This document shows positions 46,646 to 55,180 of a stretch of 64,000 nucleotides of DNA, piece after piece. A program made the translations under genes and the position numbers. Under the pieces are notes generated by a model. It saw only the letters and a program-made list of their open reading frames with translations. It did no database searches and was not told the DNA's origin. Positions within the stretch are counted from its first letter, which is position 1, and every line of letters starts with the position of its first letter. The stretch is taken from the NCBI RefSeq assembly GCF_053078305.1, contig NZ_CP166879.1. One strand, 5' to 3'.

Positions 46646-47674
46646 ATGGGATTGTTTACGACCCGCCAGTTACTCGGTTATACCGAACAAAAAGTGAAAT
46701 TTCGTGCGCTGTTTCTGGAGCTGTTTTTCCGCCGTACGGTGAATTTCCACACCGAAGAGGTGATGCTGGATAAAATTACCGGAAAAACGCCGGTGGCAGC
46801 CTATGTCTCCCCGGTTGTTGAAGGAAAAGTGCTGCGTCATCGTGGTGGTGAAACCCGCGTGTTGCGTCCGGGCTACGTCAAGCCGAAACACGAATTTAAT
46901 TACCAGCAGGCGGTGGAGCGCCTTCCCGGTGAAGATCCGGCGCAACTGAACGACCCGGCCTACCGTCGTCTGCGTATCATCACTGATAACCTCAAACAGG
47001 AAGAGCATGCCATTGTCCAGGTGGAGGAAATGCAGGCGGTGAATGCCGTGCTGTATGGCAAATACACCATGGAAGGGGAGCAGTTTGATACTGTCGAGGT
47101 GGATTTCGGGCGCTCTGAAGGAAATAACATTGAGCAGGCTGACGGTAAAAAATGGTCTGAGCAGGACCGTGATACGTTTGATCCGACGCATGATATTGAC
47201 CTCTACTGCGATCAGGCCAGCGGTCTTGTGAATATCGCCATTATGGACGGTACGGTCTGGCGTCTGCTGAATGGCTTTAAGTTGTTCCGCGAAAAACTGG
47301 ATGCCCGTCGCGGCTCAAATTCACAACTCGAAACAGCAGTGAAAGACCTGGGGTCGGTGGTGTCCTTCAAGGGGTATTACGGCGATCTGGCCATTGTGGT
47401 GGCGAAAACGTCTTATGTGGCAGAGGACGGTACCGAAAAACGTTATCTGCCGGAGGGCACGCTGGTCCTGGGAAATACGTCAGCGGAGGGCATCCGTTGC
47501 TATGGTGCCATTCAGGATGCGCAGGCGTTGTCCGAAGGTGTGGTGGCCTCTTCCCGTTATCCGAAACACTGGATGACCGTGGGCGATCCGGCCCGTGAAT
47601 TCACCATGACGCAGTCCGCGCCGCTGATGGTGCTGCCGGATCCGGATGAGTTTGTGGTGGTACAGGTGAAATAA
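46646..47674 (+). CDS. Major capsid protein (gpE-like)
   Basis: 342 aa collinear with lambda gpE. Confidence 0.9.
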   Translation: MGLFTTRQLLGYTEQKVKFRALFLELFFRRTVNFHTEEVMLDKITGKTPVAAYVSPVVEGKVLRHRGGETRVLRPGYVKPKHEFNYQQAVERLPGEDPAQLNDPAYRRLRIITDNLKQEEHAIVQVEEMQAVNAVLYGKYTMEGEQFDTVEVDFGRSEGNNIEQADGKKWSEQDRDTFDPTHDIDLYCDQASGLVNIAIMDGTVWRLLNGFKLFREKLDARRGSNSQLETAVKDLGSVVSFKGYYGDLAIVVAKTSYVAEDGTEKRYLPEGTLVLGNTSAEGIRCYGAIQDAQALSEGVVASSRYPKHWMTVGDPAREFTMTQSAPLMVLPDPDEFVVVQVK

Positions 47675-48470: not shown

Positions 48471-48953
48471 ATGGCGATAAAAGGGCTTGATCAGGCGATT
48501 GATAATCTGAGCCGGGTTCGTAAAAACGCCATTCCTGCTGCTTCAGCAATGGCCATTAACCGCGTGGCCACAACGGCAATAAATCAGTCTGCGTCACAGG
48601 TTGCCCGTGAGACAAAGGTACGCCGGAAACTGGTAAAGGAAAGGGCCAGGCTGAAAAGGGCCACGGTAAAAAATCCGCAGGCCAGAATCAAAGTTAACCG
48701 GGGGGATTTGCCTGTAATCAGGCTGGGTAATGCGCGGGTTGTCCTGTCCCGACGCAGGCGACGTAAAAAGGGGCAGCGTTCATCCCTGAAAGGTGGCGGC
48801 AGTGTGCTTGTGGTGGGTAACCGTCGCATTCCCGGCGCGTTTATTCAGCAACTGAAAAATGGGCGGTGGCATGTCATGCAGCGTGTGGCCGGGAAAAACC
48901 GTTACCCCATTGATGTGGTAAAAATCCCGATGGCGGTGCCTGTAACCAGGTAA
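48471..48953 (+). pseudogene. Minor tail protein Z-like, truncated at codon ~157
   Basis: Near-identical to lambda gpZ up to ...VVKIPMAVP then diverges and stops; lambda gpZ is ~190 aa. Confidence 0.75.
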
Positions 48954-49245
48954 ATCATTTGATACCGACAAGGGTTTTAGTGAAAGGAGGTGAAATCACC
49001 TGTAAGATACTGAAATAAAACAGGTGATCGATGATTCTGGAGGTTGTTTAGTTTTGATACTGATTAAATAAAATCCGGTATAAAATTAAGGTATCGGCAA
49101 CAAATTTGATACTGCACATACTGCTTATGGACGTTTTTAAAAGTACTTAAAATGTCTTTTATGCTAAAAAGTTTATATCAATATCGATCTGGTCACAAAT
49201 CAAGTTGAAAGTGCTCGCTAAGTGCATAGCCTGGGCTTCATGGGG
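48941..49245 (+). repeat. Putative Mu-like left end (attL) with repeated TTTGATACYG motifs
   Basis: Motif at least four times in about 200 bp; begins 5'-TG where Z homology ends. Confidence 0.45.
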
Positions 49246-49764
49246 TTACGCTTTGGCTTCTTTATGGGTTAAATTGAAATGATGCTCCTTGGTTTCATCT
49301 CCCTCGAAAATCTCTCTAACCTTTTGATCTGATAAATTATTAAGGCTCAATGCTGCCAGGCGTCGAATACCTGTTAAAGCGATCAACTCTTGATTCTCTT
49401 GATTGCAGAATTCCAGCAATTTTTCTACCCCTTTCCTTCTCAAGGTGTAAATAACTAATTCTTGCTCTTCTTGGCTCAAAGTGTCGATGAGTTCGAGCAA
49501 CTCGCTATTGCCACCGTTCTTTTGAGGGGGCTGGTGTTTTATTTCTGCACTACCTGTAATGATGGAAACAACATGTGCAGGTAAGTCGCTTAAACGGTAG
49601 GCAAATGCTCTCCCTCTGATACCAGGTGTAGTTACCGAACGTTTTTCCCATCCTTCATTTTTTGCTCGTTTATGAAGCCCAGCCAGAGATGAAGGAAGAC
49701 CTCCAACCCCCAACAAGTCACTGGCAAGGATCCATTCTTGGTCAAGGATCATATCAAACTCCAT
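49246..49764 (-). CDS. Mu c-like repressor
   Basis: N-terminal ...LPSSLAGLHKRAK... domain shared with the transposase N-terminus. Confidence 0.7.
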   Translation of the reverse strand: MEFDMILDQEWILASDLLGVGGLPSSLAGLHKRAKNEGWEKRSVTTPGIRGRAFAYRLSDLPAHVVSIITGSAEIKHQPPQKNGGNSELLELIDTLSQEEQELVIYTLRRKGVEKLLEFCNQENQELIALTGIRRLAALSLNNLSDQKVREIFEGDETKEHHFNLTHKEAKA

Positions 49765-49981: not shown

Positions 49982-50227
49982 GTGAGTCTTATTGAAGATT
50001 GGTCTTCCGCCGATATAAAGGCAGCCTTAGAAAAACGCGATACCAATTTGTCACGTTTATCAAGGGAAAATAATTTGCAGCCTAGGACTTTGGGTAATGC
50101 TTTGCGAGTTCCCTACCCTAAAGGTGAAAAGATAATTGCTAGGGCTATAGGTGTAGAGCCACAGGTTATTTGGCCTACTAGATATGAACGACGTGCGCGG
50201 AGGAAATATGTGGGTTGCAATGACTGA
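49982..50227 (+). CDS. ner: Ner-like DNA-binding regulator
   Basis: 81 aa; ...LSRLSRENNLQPRTLGNAL...KGEKIIARAIGVEPQVIWPTRY. Confidence 0.7.
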   Translation: MSLIEDWSSADIKAALEKRDTNLSRLSRENNLQPRTLGNALRVPYPKGEKIIARAIGVEPQVIWPTRYERRARRKYVGCND

Positions 50228-52292
50228 ATTGATTTCATTCAGTGACCTACCTAGTTCTTTGGCAGGTCTGCACAAAAAAGCAAAGAGGGAAGCGTGGAAA
50301 ACGCGGCTAAAACCAGGGGTAAAAGGGAAAGTTTTAGAGTGTGAAATAGGAGCTTTGCCTTTAACTGTTCAGCAGGCAGTACGCGAACGCCATGCCCTGC
50401 AACTGATGACGCAAAAAGCCGATGAATCACCGGCTCCGGTGGTGACAAAGGCCAGACGCTCACCTGCCGTGGTTGATGCGGTGGAGGCATATCGCGGATC
50501 ACCCCAACTGATGGTCGAACGCCTCAATGCCCTGACTGAAAATCAGCGCCAGGTGGCTGATGCACGAATCGCGATCGTCAGCGAAGTTCTGAAAGTCGCG
50601 CAACAACCTGGTTTCAGCTGTGCGAAGGCTATCCGGTTTATCGTTGACAACCTGGCACGTTCGCAGTTGGACGAGCGCATTGTGGCAATGGTTGAGACGG
50701 CGAACGCCAAAAAGGGAAACAGCCGCGCGTTAAGTGAAATCACGCTGAAACGCTGGATTGCGGCCTTTAACAAGGCGCAGAACGCCGCTGAACGCCTGCT
50801 TTTACTGGCACCGGGTAAGCGCCAGGAAATAAAAGCCGAAGATATTAACTGGCTGCCCGAATTTCTGGCGCAGTATCGCCAGTCAAACGGCCGACCAATG
50901 ACCGAGGCTTACGAGGATTTTGTCGCTGAATGGCAGCACCGGCACGCCGATGAGCCTTATATGCTCGATATCATGCCGTCTTATGACACCATTCGCCGCG
51001 CAATGAAGAAACTGCCGGAAGTGGTGAAACAAAAAGGCCGGGTGACCGGCAGTGAATACCGCCAGCTTGAGGGATTCACGCGCCGCGACTGGTCAAAAAT
51101 GCCGGTGAATTATGTCTGGATTGGTGACGGTCACGGCATGAAGCTGAAATGCGCACACCCGGTTCACGGTCGGCCATTTGCACCGGAAGTGACCTTTGTT
51201 ATCGACGGTGGCACGCGCTTTGTGGTGGGCTGGAGCCTTGACCTGGCTGAAAATGTTTTCGCCGTAGCCGGTGCCATACAGCACGGCATTCGCCATCACG
51301 GCAAACCGTTTCTGTATTACTCGGATAACGGCTCCGGGGAAACCGCCGACATCCTGGATAAGGAGGTTGTGGGGATACTGCCGCGACTGGGGATTAATCA
51401 CCCGACCGGGATTGCCGGTAATCCGCAGGGACGAGGCATTATCGAACGGCTTAACCGCACATTACCGATGCGCATAGCCCGTAAATACCGCACCTATTTC
51501 GGGAAAGGTGCAGATCGCGAGACGTTACGCAAAACCAACCGCGATTTACGCTCGGCATTTACTGCCCTGCAACAGGGCAAACGGCTGAACGCCCGGCAGC
51601 AGTCAGCGATGCGTGATTTACCGTCCTGGTCTGAACTGATTGATGCCATTCGTGACGGTGTTGAGTGGTACAACAACCGGCCGCACGATGAATTACCGGT
51701 GAAGCCGAACGGCAAGCATTACAGCCCGGCGGAGTTCAGAAAAAAACGCCTGGCGGAAGAGGACACGGAAATTGAATGGCTGTCCGATGTTGAGCTGCGG
51801 GATATGTTCCGGCCGATGGTGGAACGCCCTGTAAGACGCTGTGAAATACGCTGGCTGAATAATATTTACTACGCGCCCGAGCTGCGTGACGAGCATGGTC
51901 GTAAGGTGCTTATCAGCTATGACATTCATGATGCCGAACGAATTACCGTACGTCGCCTGGATGGCAGCGTGATTTGCGAGGCGGTATGGGACGGTAATAA
52001 ACGCGAAGCCTTCCCGGTTAGCGCGGAATACTACAAACAGCAGCAACGCCTTAAAGGCATGCGTAAACGCGCAGAGGAAAAAATCCGTGATGCCGAGGAT
52101 GAGGTTGTCAACGTGCTGGAGCACAAGCCGCAGGAGCCCTGGCTGGAAAACATATACCGCCCTGTGGGTAATACGGTGACCGTTCAGCAACCGGTCGCTG
52201 ACGATGAACCTGATGAAGAATACGAGCGTAATTTCCAGCGGGGATTGCAGTTGCTGGAAGCGAAATTAAAAGAAAATGACCCGCTGGCCTGA
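50208..52292 (+). CDS. MuA-like DDE transposase
   Basis: About 695 aa; repressor-like N-terminal domain; GGAGG RBS; start overlaps ner. Confidence 0.85.
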   Translation: MWVAMTELISFSDLPSSLAGLHKKAKREAWKTRLKPGVKGKVLECEIGALPLTVQQAVRERHALQLMTQKADESPAPVVTKARRSPAVVDAVEAYRGSPQLMVERLNALTENQRQVADARIAIVSEVLKVAQQPGFSCAKAIRFIVDNLARSQLDERIVAMVETANAKKGNSRALSEITLKRWIAAFNKAQNAAERLLLLAPGKRQEIKAEDINWLPEFLAQYRQSNGRPMTEAYEDFVAEWQHRHADEPYMLDIMPSYDTIRRAMKKLPEVVKQKGRVTGSEYRQLEGFTRRDWSKMPVNYVWIGDGHGMKLKCAHPVHGRPFAPEVTFVIDGGTRFVVGWSLDLAENVFAVAGAIQHGIRHHGKPFLYYSDNGSGETADILDKEVVGILPRLGINHPTGIAGNPQGRGIIERLNRTLPMRIARKYRTYFGKGADRETLRKTNRDLRSAFTALQQGKRLNARQQSAMRDLPSWSELIDAIRDGVEWYNNRPHDELPVKPNGKHYSPAEFRKKRLAEEDTEIEWLSDVELRDMFRPMVERPVRRCEIRWLNNIYYAPELRDEHGRKVLISYDIHDAERITVRRLDGSVICEAVWDGNKREAFPVSAEYYKQQQRLKGMRKRAEEKIRDAEDEVVNVLEHKPQEPWLENIYRPVGNTVTVQQPVADDEPDEEYERNFQRGLQLLEAKLKENDPLA

Positions 52293-52363
52293 AATAAAAA
52301 AATAACCCGAGCGGCGACTCAGGTTATTTGATTAAACAAGGTATCAAATGAAAGGTTAATAAT

Positions 52364-53296
52364 ATGACTGATATTAACGATGTAATCAAGACCATTGATG
52401 AACTTATTGATGGCGGCGTACTGACGCAGTATGCCATCGCCAGAGAGGCGGGAATTTCCGACGGCACATTATCGGCTTTCCGTAAGGGAAAATATAAAGG
52501 CGATAACGCTGCTGTGGCTGCTTCCCTGCGTTCCTGGTATGAGAACTGGAATAAACAAAGCGCACTGCCGGAACCGCCGCAGTTTGTGGAAACGCAGACA
52601 GTCCAGGAGCTGCGCACACTGTTTCAGGCGGTTCGTCTGATGGGCTGTATTAACGTTATTGTGGGCGTACCGGGTGTGGGTAAAACGGCCACTGCCCGTA
52701 ATTACTGCCAGGAGCAACCAAACACCTGGATGATCACCCTGTCACCCGCGCACTCCAGCGTCACGGAGTGTCTGCTGGAGCTGGCCGATGCGCTGGGGAT
52801 TGATTACACCCGCGCGAACAAAGGGGCATTATCCCGCGCCATCCGCCGTCGCCTGATGGGAACGCGTGGACTGGTGATTGTGGATGAGGCGGATCATCTT
52901 GGTATTGACGGTCTGGAGCAACTCCGGGCAATTCAGGACGCCACGGGGATCGGGATGGTGCTTATTGGTAACCCGCGCGGATTGTTTAAAGGTGGACGCC
53001 GCGCCTTTGATGATTTATCGCGCCTGTTCAGCCGTCTTGCCCGTACAAAACAACTTCGCAAGGCCAAAAAGGCGGATGTGCTGGCCATTGCCAGTGCGTG
53101 GGGGATCAGTGGTGAGGCCGAGCTGGCCGTCATGCAGGCTATCGCTGAAAAGCCGGGAGCGTTACGCGTTCTGACACATACGCTTAACCAGGCGTGGCTC
53201 ACCGCCAGCGGTGAAGGCGCGGCGCTGACAGAAAAACATATTAATGCGGCCTTTAAAGAGGTTTATACCAACCCTGAATTACTCTCACAGGTGTGA
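52364..53296 (+). CDS. MuB-like AAA+ ATPase
   Basis: Walker A VGVPGVGKT, Walker B VIVDEADHL. Confidence 0.85.
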   Translation: MTDINDVIKTIDELIDGGVLTQYAIAREAGISDGTLSAFRKGKYKGDNAAVAASLRSWYENWNKQSALPEPPQFVETQTVQELRTLFQAVRLMGCINVIVGVPGVGKTATARNYCQEQPNTWMITLSPAHSSVTECLLELADALGIDYTRANKGALSRAIRRRLMGTRGLVIVDEADHLGIDGLEQLRAIQDATGIGMVLIGNPRGLFKGGRRAFDDLSRLFSRLARTKQLRKAKKADVLAIASAWGISGEAELAVMQAIAEKPGALRVLTHTLNQAWLTASGEGAALTEKHINAAFKEVYTNPELLSQV

Positions 53297-53520
53297 TTAT
53301 GGCGGTATTTAATATTCCTGATATTTACGGACGCTTTTACCTGGTTAATTTCGATAACGTGAAGGTGATTTCACTGGCCGAAAATAAAGAATGTGGCGAT
53401 TTACTTTTTGAATTTAATGACCGCACACGAATGGTGATATCTGCCGGACTTGATCGCGAAGGTGCGACAGACGTTTACAGCGGAATATGCCGTTCTGTTG
53501 GTGCGAAACAAGTCAGCTAA
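53293..53520 (+). CDS. Small early protein (kil position)
   Basis: 75 aa immediately after B; positional. Confidence 0.35.
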   Translation: MIMAVFNIPDIYGRFYLVNFDNVKVISLAENKECGDLLFEFNDRTRMVISAGLDREGATDVYSGICRSVGAKQVS

Positions 53521-53787
53521 ATGAGGTGTTATATGAATATGCAATCCTGCGGTAACAAAATGAATTTATTCGACTCCCTGAACAGCGCGCGCCGTCTGAC
53601 CGAACTTGCCGGTGCGGTACTGGAACGCAGTAAGCGCTATCCGCAACGTTTTGCACTGAAAACCACGCCGCCGGTAGGCAACGTGCAGGGAACCGGTGAA
53701 ATTGAAATCACCATACAGACCAACGGCCTGCGCCGCCGTGTGAAGGCCACCCGCATCAGCGGCTGCACGGTTTACTGGGAGGTGTGA
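53521..53787 (+). CDS. Hypothetical early protein
   Basis: 88 aa. Confidence 0.3.
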   Translation: MRCYMNMQSCGNKMNLFDSLNSARRLTELAGAVLERSKRYPQRFALKTTPPVGNVQGTGEIEITIQTNGLRRRVKATRISGCTVYWEV

Positions 53788-53864
53788 GGTGAAAAAAAAA
53801 TCTCATTGCATGGGCGTGGTCGAGTGGTCTTATTGAGTTTGGTTACGTCCTGCCGGAAGGTGCA

Positions 53865-54071
53865 TTGCCGATAGTTGCCGGAAAGCCTGCCACGGTACGG
53901 CATGTGATTGAGGTTATGGCGCGTCATGGACGTGATGAACAGGAGCAGTTACTGGTTCCGGGGATACCGGAAGCGGTGACGGAGGAAGAAGCCTTTAATG
54001 CCATGATTCGGTTCTGCCGTGAGGTCAGACGCCGGGTCAGTTATCCAAACAGAACGAGGACCAGAGGATGA
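53865..54071 (+). CDS. Hypothetical early protein
   Basis: 68 aa. Confidence 0.3.
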   Translation: MPIVAGKPATVRHVIEVMARHGRDEQEQLLVPGIPEAVTEEEAFNAMIRFCREVRRRVSYPNRTRTRG

Positions 54072-54340
54072 GTAAAGTCGTACGCATTATTTTCGAATAC
54101 AAGGAGCACGTTATCCATAAAAACGCGGATGGAACAGTGCGCATGGGGATAAGTCTGGACATACGTTCAACCGGGATAAAGCAGAAAGGTGATGGACCTG
54201 CCATGATTTTTGGGGTGGTTATGCTCGCGGAAAGCAGAGACTTTGCTGAACTTGTGGCAATGAAAGCCAGTGCGCTCATGAAAGATATGAGCATGCGTTC
54301 CGGGGTTATTAAAGGTAATGAATTTAATCAGCAGGGGTAA
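54068..54340 (+). CDS. Hypothetical early protein (paralog A)
   Basis: MSKVVRIIFEYKEHV... Confidence 0.4.
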   Translation: MSKVVRIIFEYKEHVIHKNADGTVRMGISLDIRSTGIKQKGDGPAMIFGVVMLAESRDFAELVAMKASALMKDMSMRSGVIKGNEFNQQG

Positions 54341-54344
54341 TTCC

Positions 54345-54638
54345 ATGAGCAAAGTACGCGTTATTTTTGAATTTAAGCATGTTTCGCATGACGAAAAACC
54401 GGCAGGCAATGACTGTGTTGAAGTGCATGAAAAGATTGGTGTGGATGTAAAAACAGAACGTGATACGAATAACAGGCCGACGTCACTCTGTGACGTTTAT
54501 GTAAGTATTCTCCAGTATCACAGTCCTGAAATTATTCAGTTTCTCTCAGCGGAATTTCAGGCATCTGTACAGGCTTTTGGGGCGGATGCCATCATTAAAC
54601 GCCACCGCGTGCATAAAGCATCAGGCACACTGCAATAA
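54345..54638 (+). CDS. Hypothetical early protein (paralog B)
   Basis: MSKVRVIFEFKHVSH...; same N-terminal signature as previous gene. Confidence 0.4.
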   Translation: MSKVRVIFEFKHVSHDEKPAGNDCVEVHEKIGVDVKTERDTNNRPTSLCDVYVSILQYHSPEIIQFLSAEFQASVQAFGADAIIKRHRVHKASGTLQ

Positions 54639-54649
54639 GGAAAAACAAA

Positions 54650-55180
54650 ATGGCAAAACGCGTTACAAAATTAAAGGCCGCAGCAGAGGCGGCACCGCAG
54701 ACCCGTGAAGAGGTCAGCCGCGATATCCGCACCCTGGGCGATATTCAGCGAGAGGCGCTGCGCCTGGAAACAGCGATGAATGATGAAGTGGCAGAAATCA
54801 CCGCCCGTTATACGCCGCAGATTGAAAACCTTAAAAAAGAAATCAAAGTGCTTTTTAAGGGGATTCAGGACTGGTGCAAAACCAACCGTGATGAGCTGAC
54901 GAACGGCGGCAAAACCAAAACTGCCAATCTGACCACCGGAACAGTGTCATGGCGGCTGGGAAATCCATCATGCAGCGTCAGCCGTGATGTGGAAGGTGTG
55001 ATTGAAATGCTGCGCCGTATGGGGCTTGAGCGATTCATCCGCACGAAAGAGGAAGTGAACAAGGAAGCGGTCCTGGCGGAGCCGGATGCAGTGAAAGGCA
55101 TTGCCGGTATTAAGGTGAATAAAGGCGCTGAAAGTTTTTATGTCGAGCCTTTTGAACAGGACGCCGGACTGAATAAATAA
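54650..55180 (+). CDS. gam: Gam-like host-nuclease inhibitor
   Basis: ...IGDIQREALRLETAMNDEVAEI...ANRDELTNGGKTKTANL...RFIRTKEEVNKEA... matches Mu Gam. Confidence 0.85.
   Translation: MAKRVTKLKAAAEAAPQTREEVSRDIRTLGDIQREALRLETAMNDEVAEITARYTPQIENLKKEIKVLFKGIQDWCKTNRDELTNGGKTKTANLTTGTVSWRLGNPSCSVSRDVEGVIEMLRRMGLERFIRTKEEVNKEAVLAEPDAVKGIAGIKVNKGAESFYVEPFEQDAGLNK

Follow-up and report, generated by a model that had tools for sequence, protein, structure and literature searches.

Among the early genes of phage Mu, downstream of B and kil and upstream of gam, lies a small gene known as gp7 or Mup07 and 'previously called E6' (NP_050611.1; 4784-5047 in AF083977). The same gene, orf63 (NP_050611.1, NC_000929 4784..5047), was named gnarl2 by Silas et al. 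(Nat Commun 2025, PMC12373910; bioRxiv 10.1101/2023.04.06.535777). Its expression in ECOR1 and ECOR22 shifts the O-antigen bands downwards and increases infection by T5 by 1e5-1e6-fold, and knockouts of O-antigen genes phenocopy the effect (PMC12373910). The phenotype is strain-specific, AP-MS with C-terminal 3xFLAG tags gave no clear target, and the authors regard both name and mechanism as tentative (PMC12373910). Besides, gnarl2 was among the genes found to be lethal in some hosts and not in others (bioRxiv 10.1101/2023.04.06.535777).

Other phage genes produce comparable changes. Gnarl1 and Gnarl3 are small accessory proteins of lytic phages (40-90 aa), devoid of enzymatic features, that also cause an O-antigen downshift. 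Gnarl3, a functional analogue of Gnarl2 from a lytic phage, binds GalU (PMC12373910) and thereby illustrates the likely mode of action, the stoichiometric binding of a host sugar-nucleotide enzyme. What these two share with Gnarl2 is a name based on phenotype; nothing points to homology, and we liken them to it by phenotype and not by sequence. The Iap protein of Pseudomonas phage D3, which is small and inhibits the O-antigen polymerase of its host (cited in PMC12373910), and the classical seroconverting enzymes (glycosyl- and acetyltransferases) are further cases of phage-encoded O-antigen alteration.

Here, we analysed two adjacent small genes, ORF1 and ORF2, of a Mu-like prophage of E. coli. 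Judged by profile comparison, they belong to a family that includes E6/Mup07, the one early gene of this type in Mu for which an effect on the host has been published. Their products resemble Mu E6 in size (about 87-97 aa), in superfamily, in the N-terminal strand motif M-x-K-V-x-I/F-E-F/I-K/N, in the loop that leads into helix 1, in the conserved Gly after helix 2 and in their slot in the early operon, between kil and gam. Yet, they are only about 15-20% identical to Mu E6, without a significant direct pairwise match. In Mu the gene is single and E7 and E8 lie between it and gam, whereas here two copies abut gam. Both proteins also depart from the family norm in lacking a terminal His, and ORF1 does so in being basic; the O-antigen phenotype is known for Mu E6 alone. 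Classical seroconversion relies on enzymes expressed from the prophage, whereas ORF1 and ORF2 belong to an early operon of lytic growth and do not resemble enzymes.

The tandem genes and their prophage setting

The window, i.e. the whole stretch of 64,000 nt that we analysed, contains from about 49.2 kb on the left end of a Mu-like transposable prophage of the Sp18 type in E. coli. A repressor-like gene on the minus strand (49246-49764) and a Ner-like gene (49982-50227) stand before the Mu A transposase (50184-52292, plus strand) and the B ATPase (52364-53296, plus strand). The presence of A and B (50184..53296) places ORF1 and ORF2 in the early operon of a transposable prophage. After B come a phrog_3375 gene (53293-53520), a Kil-like gene of uncertain start codon (53521..53787, plus strand; phrog_2679, E 8e-46), a frameshifted gene of the phrog_1518 family (53789..54071, plus strand), the two ORFs and a homologue of Mu Gam (54650..55180, plus strand; PF07352, E 1.5e-41; 58% identity to Mu Gam), with gp11- and gp12-like genes 3' of it. 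The Kil-like gene, for which PF26843 is found in syntenic loci, forms the left border of a variable accessory stretch, and Gam is its conserved right-hand anchor. The order A, B, phrog_3375, Kil, phrog_1518, ORF1, ORF2, Gam bears out the preliminary description, which had put the two small ORFs in a Mu-like semi-essential early region.

ORF1 (54068..54340, plus strand) encodes 90 aa beginning MSKVVRIIFEYKEH and matches phrog_4107 (E 2e-61). ORF2 (54345..54638, plus strand) encodes 97 aa beginning MSKVRVIFEFKHV, matches phrog_2230 (E 2e-39) and lies directly upstream of gam, which is the slot of the single copy in related phages. The products have in common an N-terminus of the form MSKV..IFE[YF]K. 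At the DNA level this corresponds to a direct repeat on the plus strand between the 5' segment of ORF1 (54068..54103), which encodes the conserved first beta-strand MSKVVRIIFEYK, and that of ORF2 (54345..54377; MSKVRVIFEFK). After the ATG, 28 of the 33 aligned bases are identical, with an indel of one codon; the upstream flanks have nothing in common. Two adjacent small ORFs, alike at the start and then diverging, had been described beforehand; they are indeed present, on one strand and at the coordinates given. The start positions of both ORFs agree with those of RefSeq in identical E. coli DNA, where they are annotated as hypothetical proteins. A 106-aa version of ORF2 from an ATG at 54318 is a mechanical reading that we rejected, as the family alignments and an AGGGG ribosome-binding site favour 54345.

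The junctions between these genes are tight. The ATG of ORF1 shares bases with the stop of the gene before it (ATGA), the ATG of ORF2 follows the ORF1 stop after four bases, and gam lies 11 bases beyond ORF2. A scan of the region between 49 and 58.5 kb gave no internal promoter or terminator signals above shuffle expectation. Hence, given the tight junctions and the absence of such signals, we would expect ORF1 and ORF2 to be co-transcribed from the early promoter upon infection or induction, with translational coupling.

Among 5426 complete E. coli genomes, 230 contain the 571-bp pair (222 with a coverage of at least 80%), and the pair is 99-100% identical to the DNA of many chromosomes of E. 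coli O157:H7 and other STEC. Our attempt to take the chromosomal context from NZ_CP034806 (strain 2010C-3347) was abandoned: this genome matches the window only between 50370 and 59170.

Two further observations concern the surroundings of the pair. The phrog_1518 gene, which is outside the E6 family and is labelled 'host nuclease inhibitor' in PHROGs, has a GTG start followed by a tract of nine A (A9, 53792-53800), against A8 in intact relatives (L035). Owing to the additional A the frame is lost after codon 4, and what remains is a 68-aa reading frame from a TTG at 53865. The homologue is unbroken in L035 and L122 and is 93 aa long in relatives. The A9 tract could be a sequencing error, the mark of a pseudogene or a case of homopolymer phase variation. 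The other observation is that the roughly 20 kb before the Mu-like element (about 28000-49200) carry lambda-type head genes, i.e. terminase, portal and a major capsid E-like protein (46646-47674). The Mu-like prophage thus appears to be inserted inside a lambdoid prophage, with a junction near 48953-49246. The Stx phages LC727881 and LC727895, annotated 'inserted Bacteriophage Mu-like phage', have a comparable arrangement.

Homology past the common N-terminus

When ORF1 and ORF2 are compared directly by BLASTP, 12 of 17 N-terminal residues are aligned (E 0.001 in this single comparison) and there is no further match. More distant relatives were sought at the locus itself. From 80 IMG/VR contigs we took the DNA that precedes gam and searched its ORFs for alleles. 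The position of Mu gp7 holds a series of alleles of 85-89 aa that begin MAKVIFEF or MAKVIIEIK, and ORF2 matches them over 74 columns (hhalign 97%, E 8e-11). With a profile built from ORF2, these alleles and Mu gp7 we then searched 1.84 billion representative proteins. Only 41 proteins were found at E <=1e-3, and those retrieved are 32-100 aa long and have the same pattern. The resulting superfamily alignment of 40 sequences, called A6, contains no ORF1-family sequence.

Against these profiles the similarity of ORF1 extends well beyond the first residues. Shallow profiles of the ORF1 and ORF2 families match over 33 columns (hhalign 84%); with the 60%-identical ORF2 alleles included on the ORF2 side the match covers 74 columns (E 1.5e-4), and the ORF1 family matches A6 over 77 collinear columns (hhalign 96.4%, E 1.4e-9). 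The A6 HMM gives ORF1 23.1 bits, and residues 14-90 alone 15.0 bits, which none of 2000 shuffles reaches (maximum 9.9). With the N-terminal 12-13 residues cut on both sides, the match still covers 59 columns (hhalign 86%, E 5e-6), and in a search free of the N-terminus the ORF1 variants are the top non-member matches among 1636 local ORFs. The preliminary description had suggested a pairwise alignment and had taken similarity confined to the N-terminus as a sign against paralogy; in fact, the similarity persists once the motif is removed.

The groups also recognise one another when each is left out in turn. ORF2 matches the rest of the family at 98.8% (E 5e-17) and Mu gp7 does so at 96.8% (E 2.7e-10), or at 97.7% when compared with the central allele group. 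ORF2 against gp7 plus that central group gives 98.0% (E 2e-13), and ORF1 against the family minus the ORF2 group gives 94.0% (E 1.4e-7). Mu gp7 itself matches over its full length phrog_2230, the PHROG of ORF2 (E 0.009), its own being phrog_10252 (E 8e-57). The direct pairwise comparisons of ORF1 with gp7 and of ORF2 with gp7 are not significant, and the link of both to gp7, although robust, is transitive through intermediate alleles, at about 15-25% identity. By these profile alignments, both proteins are shown to be homologous to the family over about 77 residues that span the predicted hairpin and both helices. ORF1 and ORF2 are thus very probably paralogues, and that both belong to the E6/Gnarl2 family is nearly as firm a conclusion.

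Beyond this family we found little. Searches of Pfam, NCBIfam and PDB sequences gave no significant match for it, neither Pfam nor NCBIfam having a model of this family, and the curated family and PDB sequence searches gave none to defence or anti-defence families. A Pfam match to RraB in two of the 40 members (E 0.005) is weak and was judged to be noise. A tblastn search against 50,697 phage records returned only two Stx phages with an inserted Mu-like element, and word-indexed protein searches returned close E. coli relatives only.

Structure prediction had been proposed as a check as well, and it points to a common beta-beta-alpha-alpha topology, predicted confidently for ORF2 and with modest confidence for ORF1. 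The AlphaFold2 model of ORF2, with A6 as alignment (pLDDT 86.8, pTM 0.72), has a long beta-hairpin (residues 4-21 and 24-39), helices at 48-58 and 60-77 and a disordered tail. ORF1 was modelled in an ORF1-(G4S)6-ORF2 construct with a block-diagonal alignment, such that the ORF1 half sees ORF1-family rows only. This half is predicted to have strands at 4-18 and 24-36 and helices at 45-54 and 57-73, in the same order of elements, with modest confidence (block means of pLDDT about 50-76); the mean pLDDT of the linked construct is 62.8, and its 30-residue linker forces the halves into proximity. Both models show the scaffold common to the family, i.e. about 80-100 aa with an N-terminal strand, a long hairpin and two helices.

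Within the family, ORF2 is a typical member and ORF1 the most atypical one. The family is acidic (median pI 5.4), whereas ORF1 is a divergent, basic copy (pI 9.4); the charges are +2.7 for ORF1 and -1.0 for ORF2. ORF1 lacks the PEII motif, with 'SRDFAELV' where the family has 'aPEIIk'. In 31 of the 40 aligned members the last residue is a His, which comes after an otherwise variable tail predicted to be disordered. It is absent from both proteins here, ORF1 ending in ...NQQG and ORF2 in ...GTLQ. The terminal His is a frequent feature of the family rather than an established hallmark of its function.

Copy number, alleles and selection

We judged copy number over 111 loci. The Sp18-type loci complete enough to judge have the tandem pair in all cases except L040 (with its duplicate L060), which has ORF2 alone, and a few frameshifted or truncated contigs, and the Mu-type loci have one copy each. 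A single copy after Kil and before Gam or DUF3164 is the arrangement in Mu and in at least ten other lineages (including L080-L132). Among the sampled lineages, the tandem pair is thus confined to the Sp18 type. In the other lineages there is no second family member upstream of the single copy, and the genes of 90-100 aa found there are unrelated. The closest relatives of ORF2 outside the Sp18-type phages of E. coli are the 'MSNKAQVIFTFE' proteins (93-98 aa), which are single-copy in the contigs examined. Their P0081, P0085, P0087 and P0088 types are 97-98 aa long, much like ORF2, and lie directly upstream of gam or DUF3164, and where a 90-aa gene precedes them it is a homologue of phrog_1518 and not of ORF1. 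Another group among the nearest relatives of ORF2, the alleles of the form 'MAKVIFEF...GPHD...PEII...H' (L091, P0063), is single-copy too, and the more distant members have the same arrangement. Since every other sampled lineage has one copy, we take ORF1 to be the additional one.

The distance of ORF1 to the group of ORF2 and the MSN proteins (hhalign E 1.7e-6) is about the same as that to the remaining alleles (E 4.7e-6). This would fit a duplication long ago, e.g. by unequal crossover, after which ORF1 diverged strongly, and equally well an allele captured from elsewhere. The 'local duplication' of the preliminary description stands as far as tandem homologues are concerned; the equal distances do not favour an origin in situ over capture, nor do they point to a recent event.

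Recombination at the conserved 5' end is plausible from the sequences of several loci. ORF2 occurs in two allele classes of about 60% protein identity (L034-L042 compared with 54345-54638 of the window). They lie between flanks of 94-100% identity, or of about 90% for ORF1 and 97-100% for Gam in the comparison with L034-L042, and the exchange is bounded by the conserved 5' end of ORF2 on one side and by the vicinity of its stop on the other. At the Mu gp7 locus (4764-4797 in L002, and its equivalents in L091, L097 and L098) very different alleles have a near-identical ribosome-binding region and first 14 nt (…aataaggtgaaacaaaATGGCAAAAGTAAT) and diverge afterwards. This common flank with its 14 nt resembles a recombination boundary on the left side of an accessory locus that is hypervariable. 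In L040 (3796-4188; IMGVR_UViG_2654587996_000001), some 75 nt from the 3' end of phrog_1518 come after Kil and lead directly into an ORF2-type gene; ORF1 and most of phrog_1518 are missing, so that an upstream flank of the ORF1 type is joined to a body of the ORF2 type exactly at the start codon. L040 could represent the ancestor with a single copy, or it could have lost ORF1 by a deletion between the 5' repeats of the two genes.

Rearranged variants are also found in E. coli. The 67-aa protein P0036 is a chimera of residues 1-49 of ORF1 and the last 18-20 residues of ORF2, corresponding to 54068-54214 of the window joined to 54579-54638. Apparently, it goes back to a deletion that joined two short 'FG' codon microhomologies at non-homologous positions. 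Further truncated or frameshifted variants of ORF1 and ORF2 are P0038-P0041, P0053, P0061 and P0062. As for the right-hand side of the locus, in L124-L127, L129, L130 and L132 a DUF3164 protein (206-216 aa) takes the place of Gam after the E6-like gene, which suggests that DUF3164 and Gam are interchangeable modules for the role of Gam at that position.

Nei-Gojobori estimates over 19 distinct DNA variants of ORF1 and 24 of ORF2 gave dN/dS values of 0.28 and 0.35, respectively. Such values indicate purifying selection and thus that both genes are maintained as proteins. ORF1 is intact at 90 aa in these 19 variants and keeps its frame despite up to 28% protein divergence. Selection is uneven along this gene. 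In codons 1-13 dN/dS is 0.03 with a dS of 0.34 (0.22 for the whole gene), and the fastest-evolving part is the hairpin (codons 14-45; dN/dS 0.55). The low dN/dS of the first codons together with their normal dS points to constraint on the protein and not on the DNA; a DNA element or a recent gene conversion behind the common 5' end is ruled out by the normal synonymous divergence there.

Candidate functions and what they mean for the family

In Mu-like transposable phages, the place of the family is in the early operon between kil and gam (or DUF3164), at an accessory locus that is hypervariable. By analogy with Gnarl2, ORF1 and ORF2 are most likely small effectors that bind host proteins and have diverged in specificity. 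Being small, without catalytic motifs and without a match to an enzyme fold, they would be expected to bind a host protein instead of catalysing a reaction. As for Mu E6, this would probably perturb O-antigen or LPS assembly. The conserved base of the hairpin and the helices might serve as a scaffold, possibly dimeric, and the fast-evolving distal hairpin might set the specificity for target or strain. Two diverged copies could then cover a wider range of host serotypes or targets, with ORF1, basic and without the PEII motif, as the neofunctionalised copy. The explanation as a whole, i.e. that an anciently diverged pair of the Mu E6/Mup07/Gnarl2 kind acts as Gnarl2-type effectors, is in our view a serious possibility that stops a little short of being probable, and the more specific proposal that the two proteins modulate the O-antigen is somewhat more tentative. 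One reason for caution is that different alleles at one accessory locus often differ in function. The early operon is repressed in lysogens. A role in prophage-mediated exclusion is thus doubtful, and a benefit during lytic development seems more likely than lysogenic seroconversion. One such benefit suggested by Silas et al. is that progeny are kept from sticking to debris (PMC12373910).

The same family might of course do another job. ORF1, ORF2 or both might bind other host or phage targets, e.g. a defence system, a nuclease in concert with the adjacent Gam or, like Kil, a factor of cell division or the envelope, the O-antigen change being specific to Mu E6 or indirect. We find this rather unlikely, though deserving attention. 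In its favour, the two proteins have very little identity to Mu E6 and are tied to it only transitively, the hairpin and the C-terminal tail are hypervariable, neither protein has the terminal His of the family, and the charge of ORF1 is the opposite one. Furthermore, Gnarl2 is without an identified target and conditionally lethal in some hosts (PMC12373910; bioRxiv 10.1101/2023.04.06.535777), and the neighbours here are Kil, a PHROG labelled 'nuclease inhibitor' and Gam. But the sole experimental phenotype of any member of the family is O-antigen alteration, the conserved scaffold and the fixed genomic position favour a common mode of action, and no defence or anti-defence family was matched. 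Less probable again is that the two products work as an obligate heterodimer through paired beta-hairpins and not as independent effectors. In the Sp18-type lineage they are always co-inherited and would be translationally coupled, their charges are complementary (+2.7 and -1.0), and the modelled hairpin on two helices, half of a two-layer alpha/beta sandwich, looks made to dimerise. Yet, every other lineage manages with one copy, such that homodimers or monomers suffice, L040 has ORF2 alone, and ORF2 alleles only 60% identical accompany nearly identical ORF1. The linked model, of mean pLDDT 62.8, adds little, as its 30-residue linker forces the proximity.

Two other readings concern the origin and fate of ORF1. 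It might be a decaying, redundant duplicate without function, as the most atypical member of the family, devoid of the conserved motifs and occasionally truncated, fused or lost (P0036, P0038-P0041, L043, L040). This is very improbable for a gene that is intact in 19 DNA variants with a dN/dS of 0.28, that keeps its frame through a protein divergence of up to 28% and that occurs together with ORF2 in at least 222 complete genomes. One might also argue that the two genes are unrelated and have in common only a short 5' module, such as a recombination linker or a translation-initiation element. The BLASTP similarity does end at residue 17, the Mu-type alleles that are identical in the 5' flank and the first 14 nt before they diverge have the pattern of a recombination boundary, and L040 joins an ORF1-type flank to an ORF2-type body at the ATG. 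Nevertheless, the collinear profile similarity survives removal of the N-terminus, the predicted topology is alike in both proteins, and codons 1-13 combine a dS of 0.34 (0.22 over the gene) with a dN/dS of 0.03. This reading is thus largely refuted and we give it hardly any credit.

With ORF1 and ORF2 taken as diverged paralogues of the E6/Gnarl2 family, what had been noticed beforehand was essentially right, i.e. true tandem homologues in a Mu-like early region, duplication in place being a separate matter as discussed above. The family already has a published member, and what we describe is a duplicated, divergent pair and its re-annotation, not a new kind of system. Yet, PHROGs holds phrog_4107, phrog_2230 and phrog_10252 as three separate families of 'unknown function'. 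Here they are joined, with Mu E6, into a single superfamily that accounts for only about 40 clusters (at 50% identity) in a set of 1.8 billion representative proteins. The contrast between its variable parts (distal hairpin and tail) and its fixed parts (first strand, helices and, in most members, the terminal His) may guide mutagenesis of Gnarl2 and the search for its target, and the C-terminal tags of the published AP-MS mask the terminal residue that the family conserves. For two 'hypothetical proteins' found in hundreds of E. coli genomes, including O157:H7, this provides a label open to experimental test, Gnarl2-like and probably concerned with the O-antigen or the envelope.
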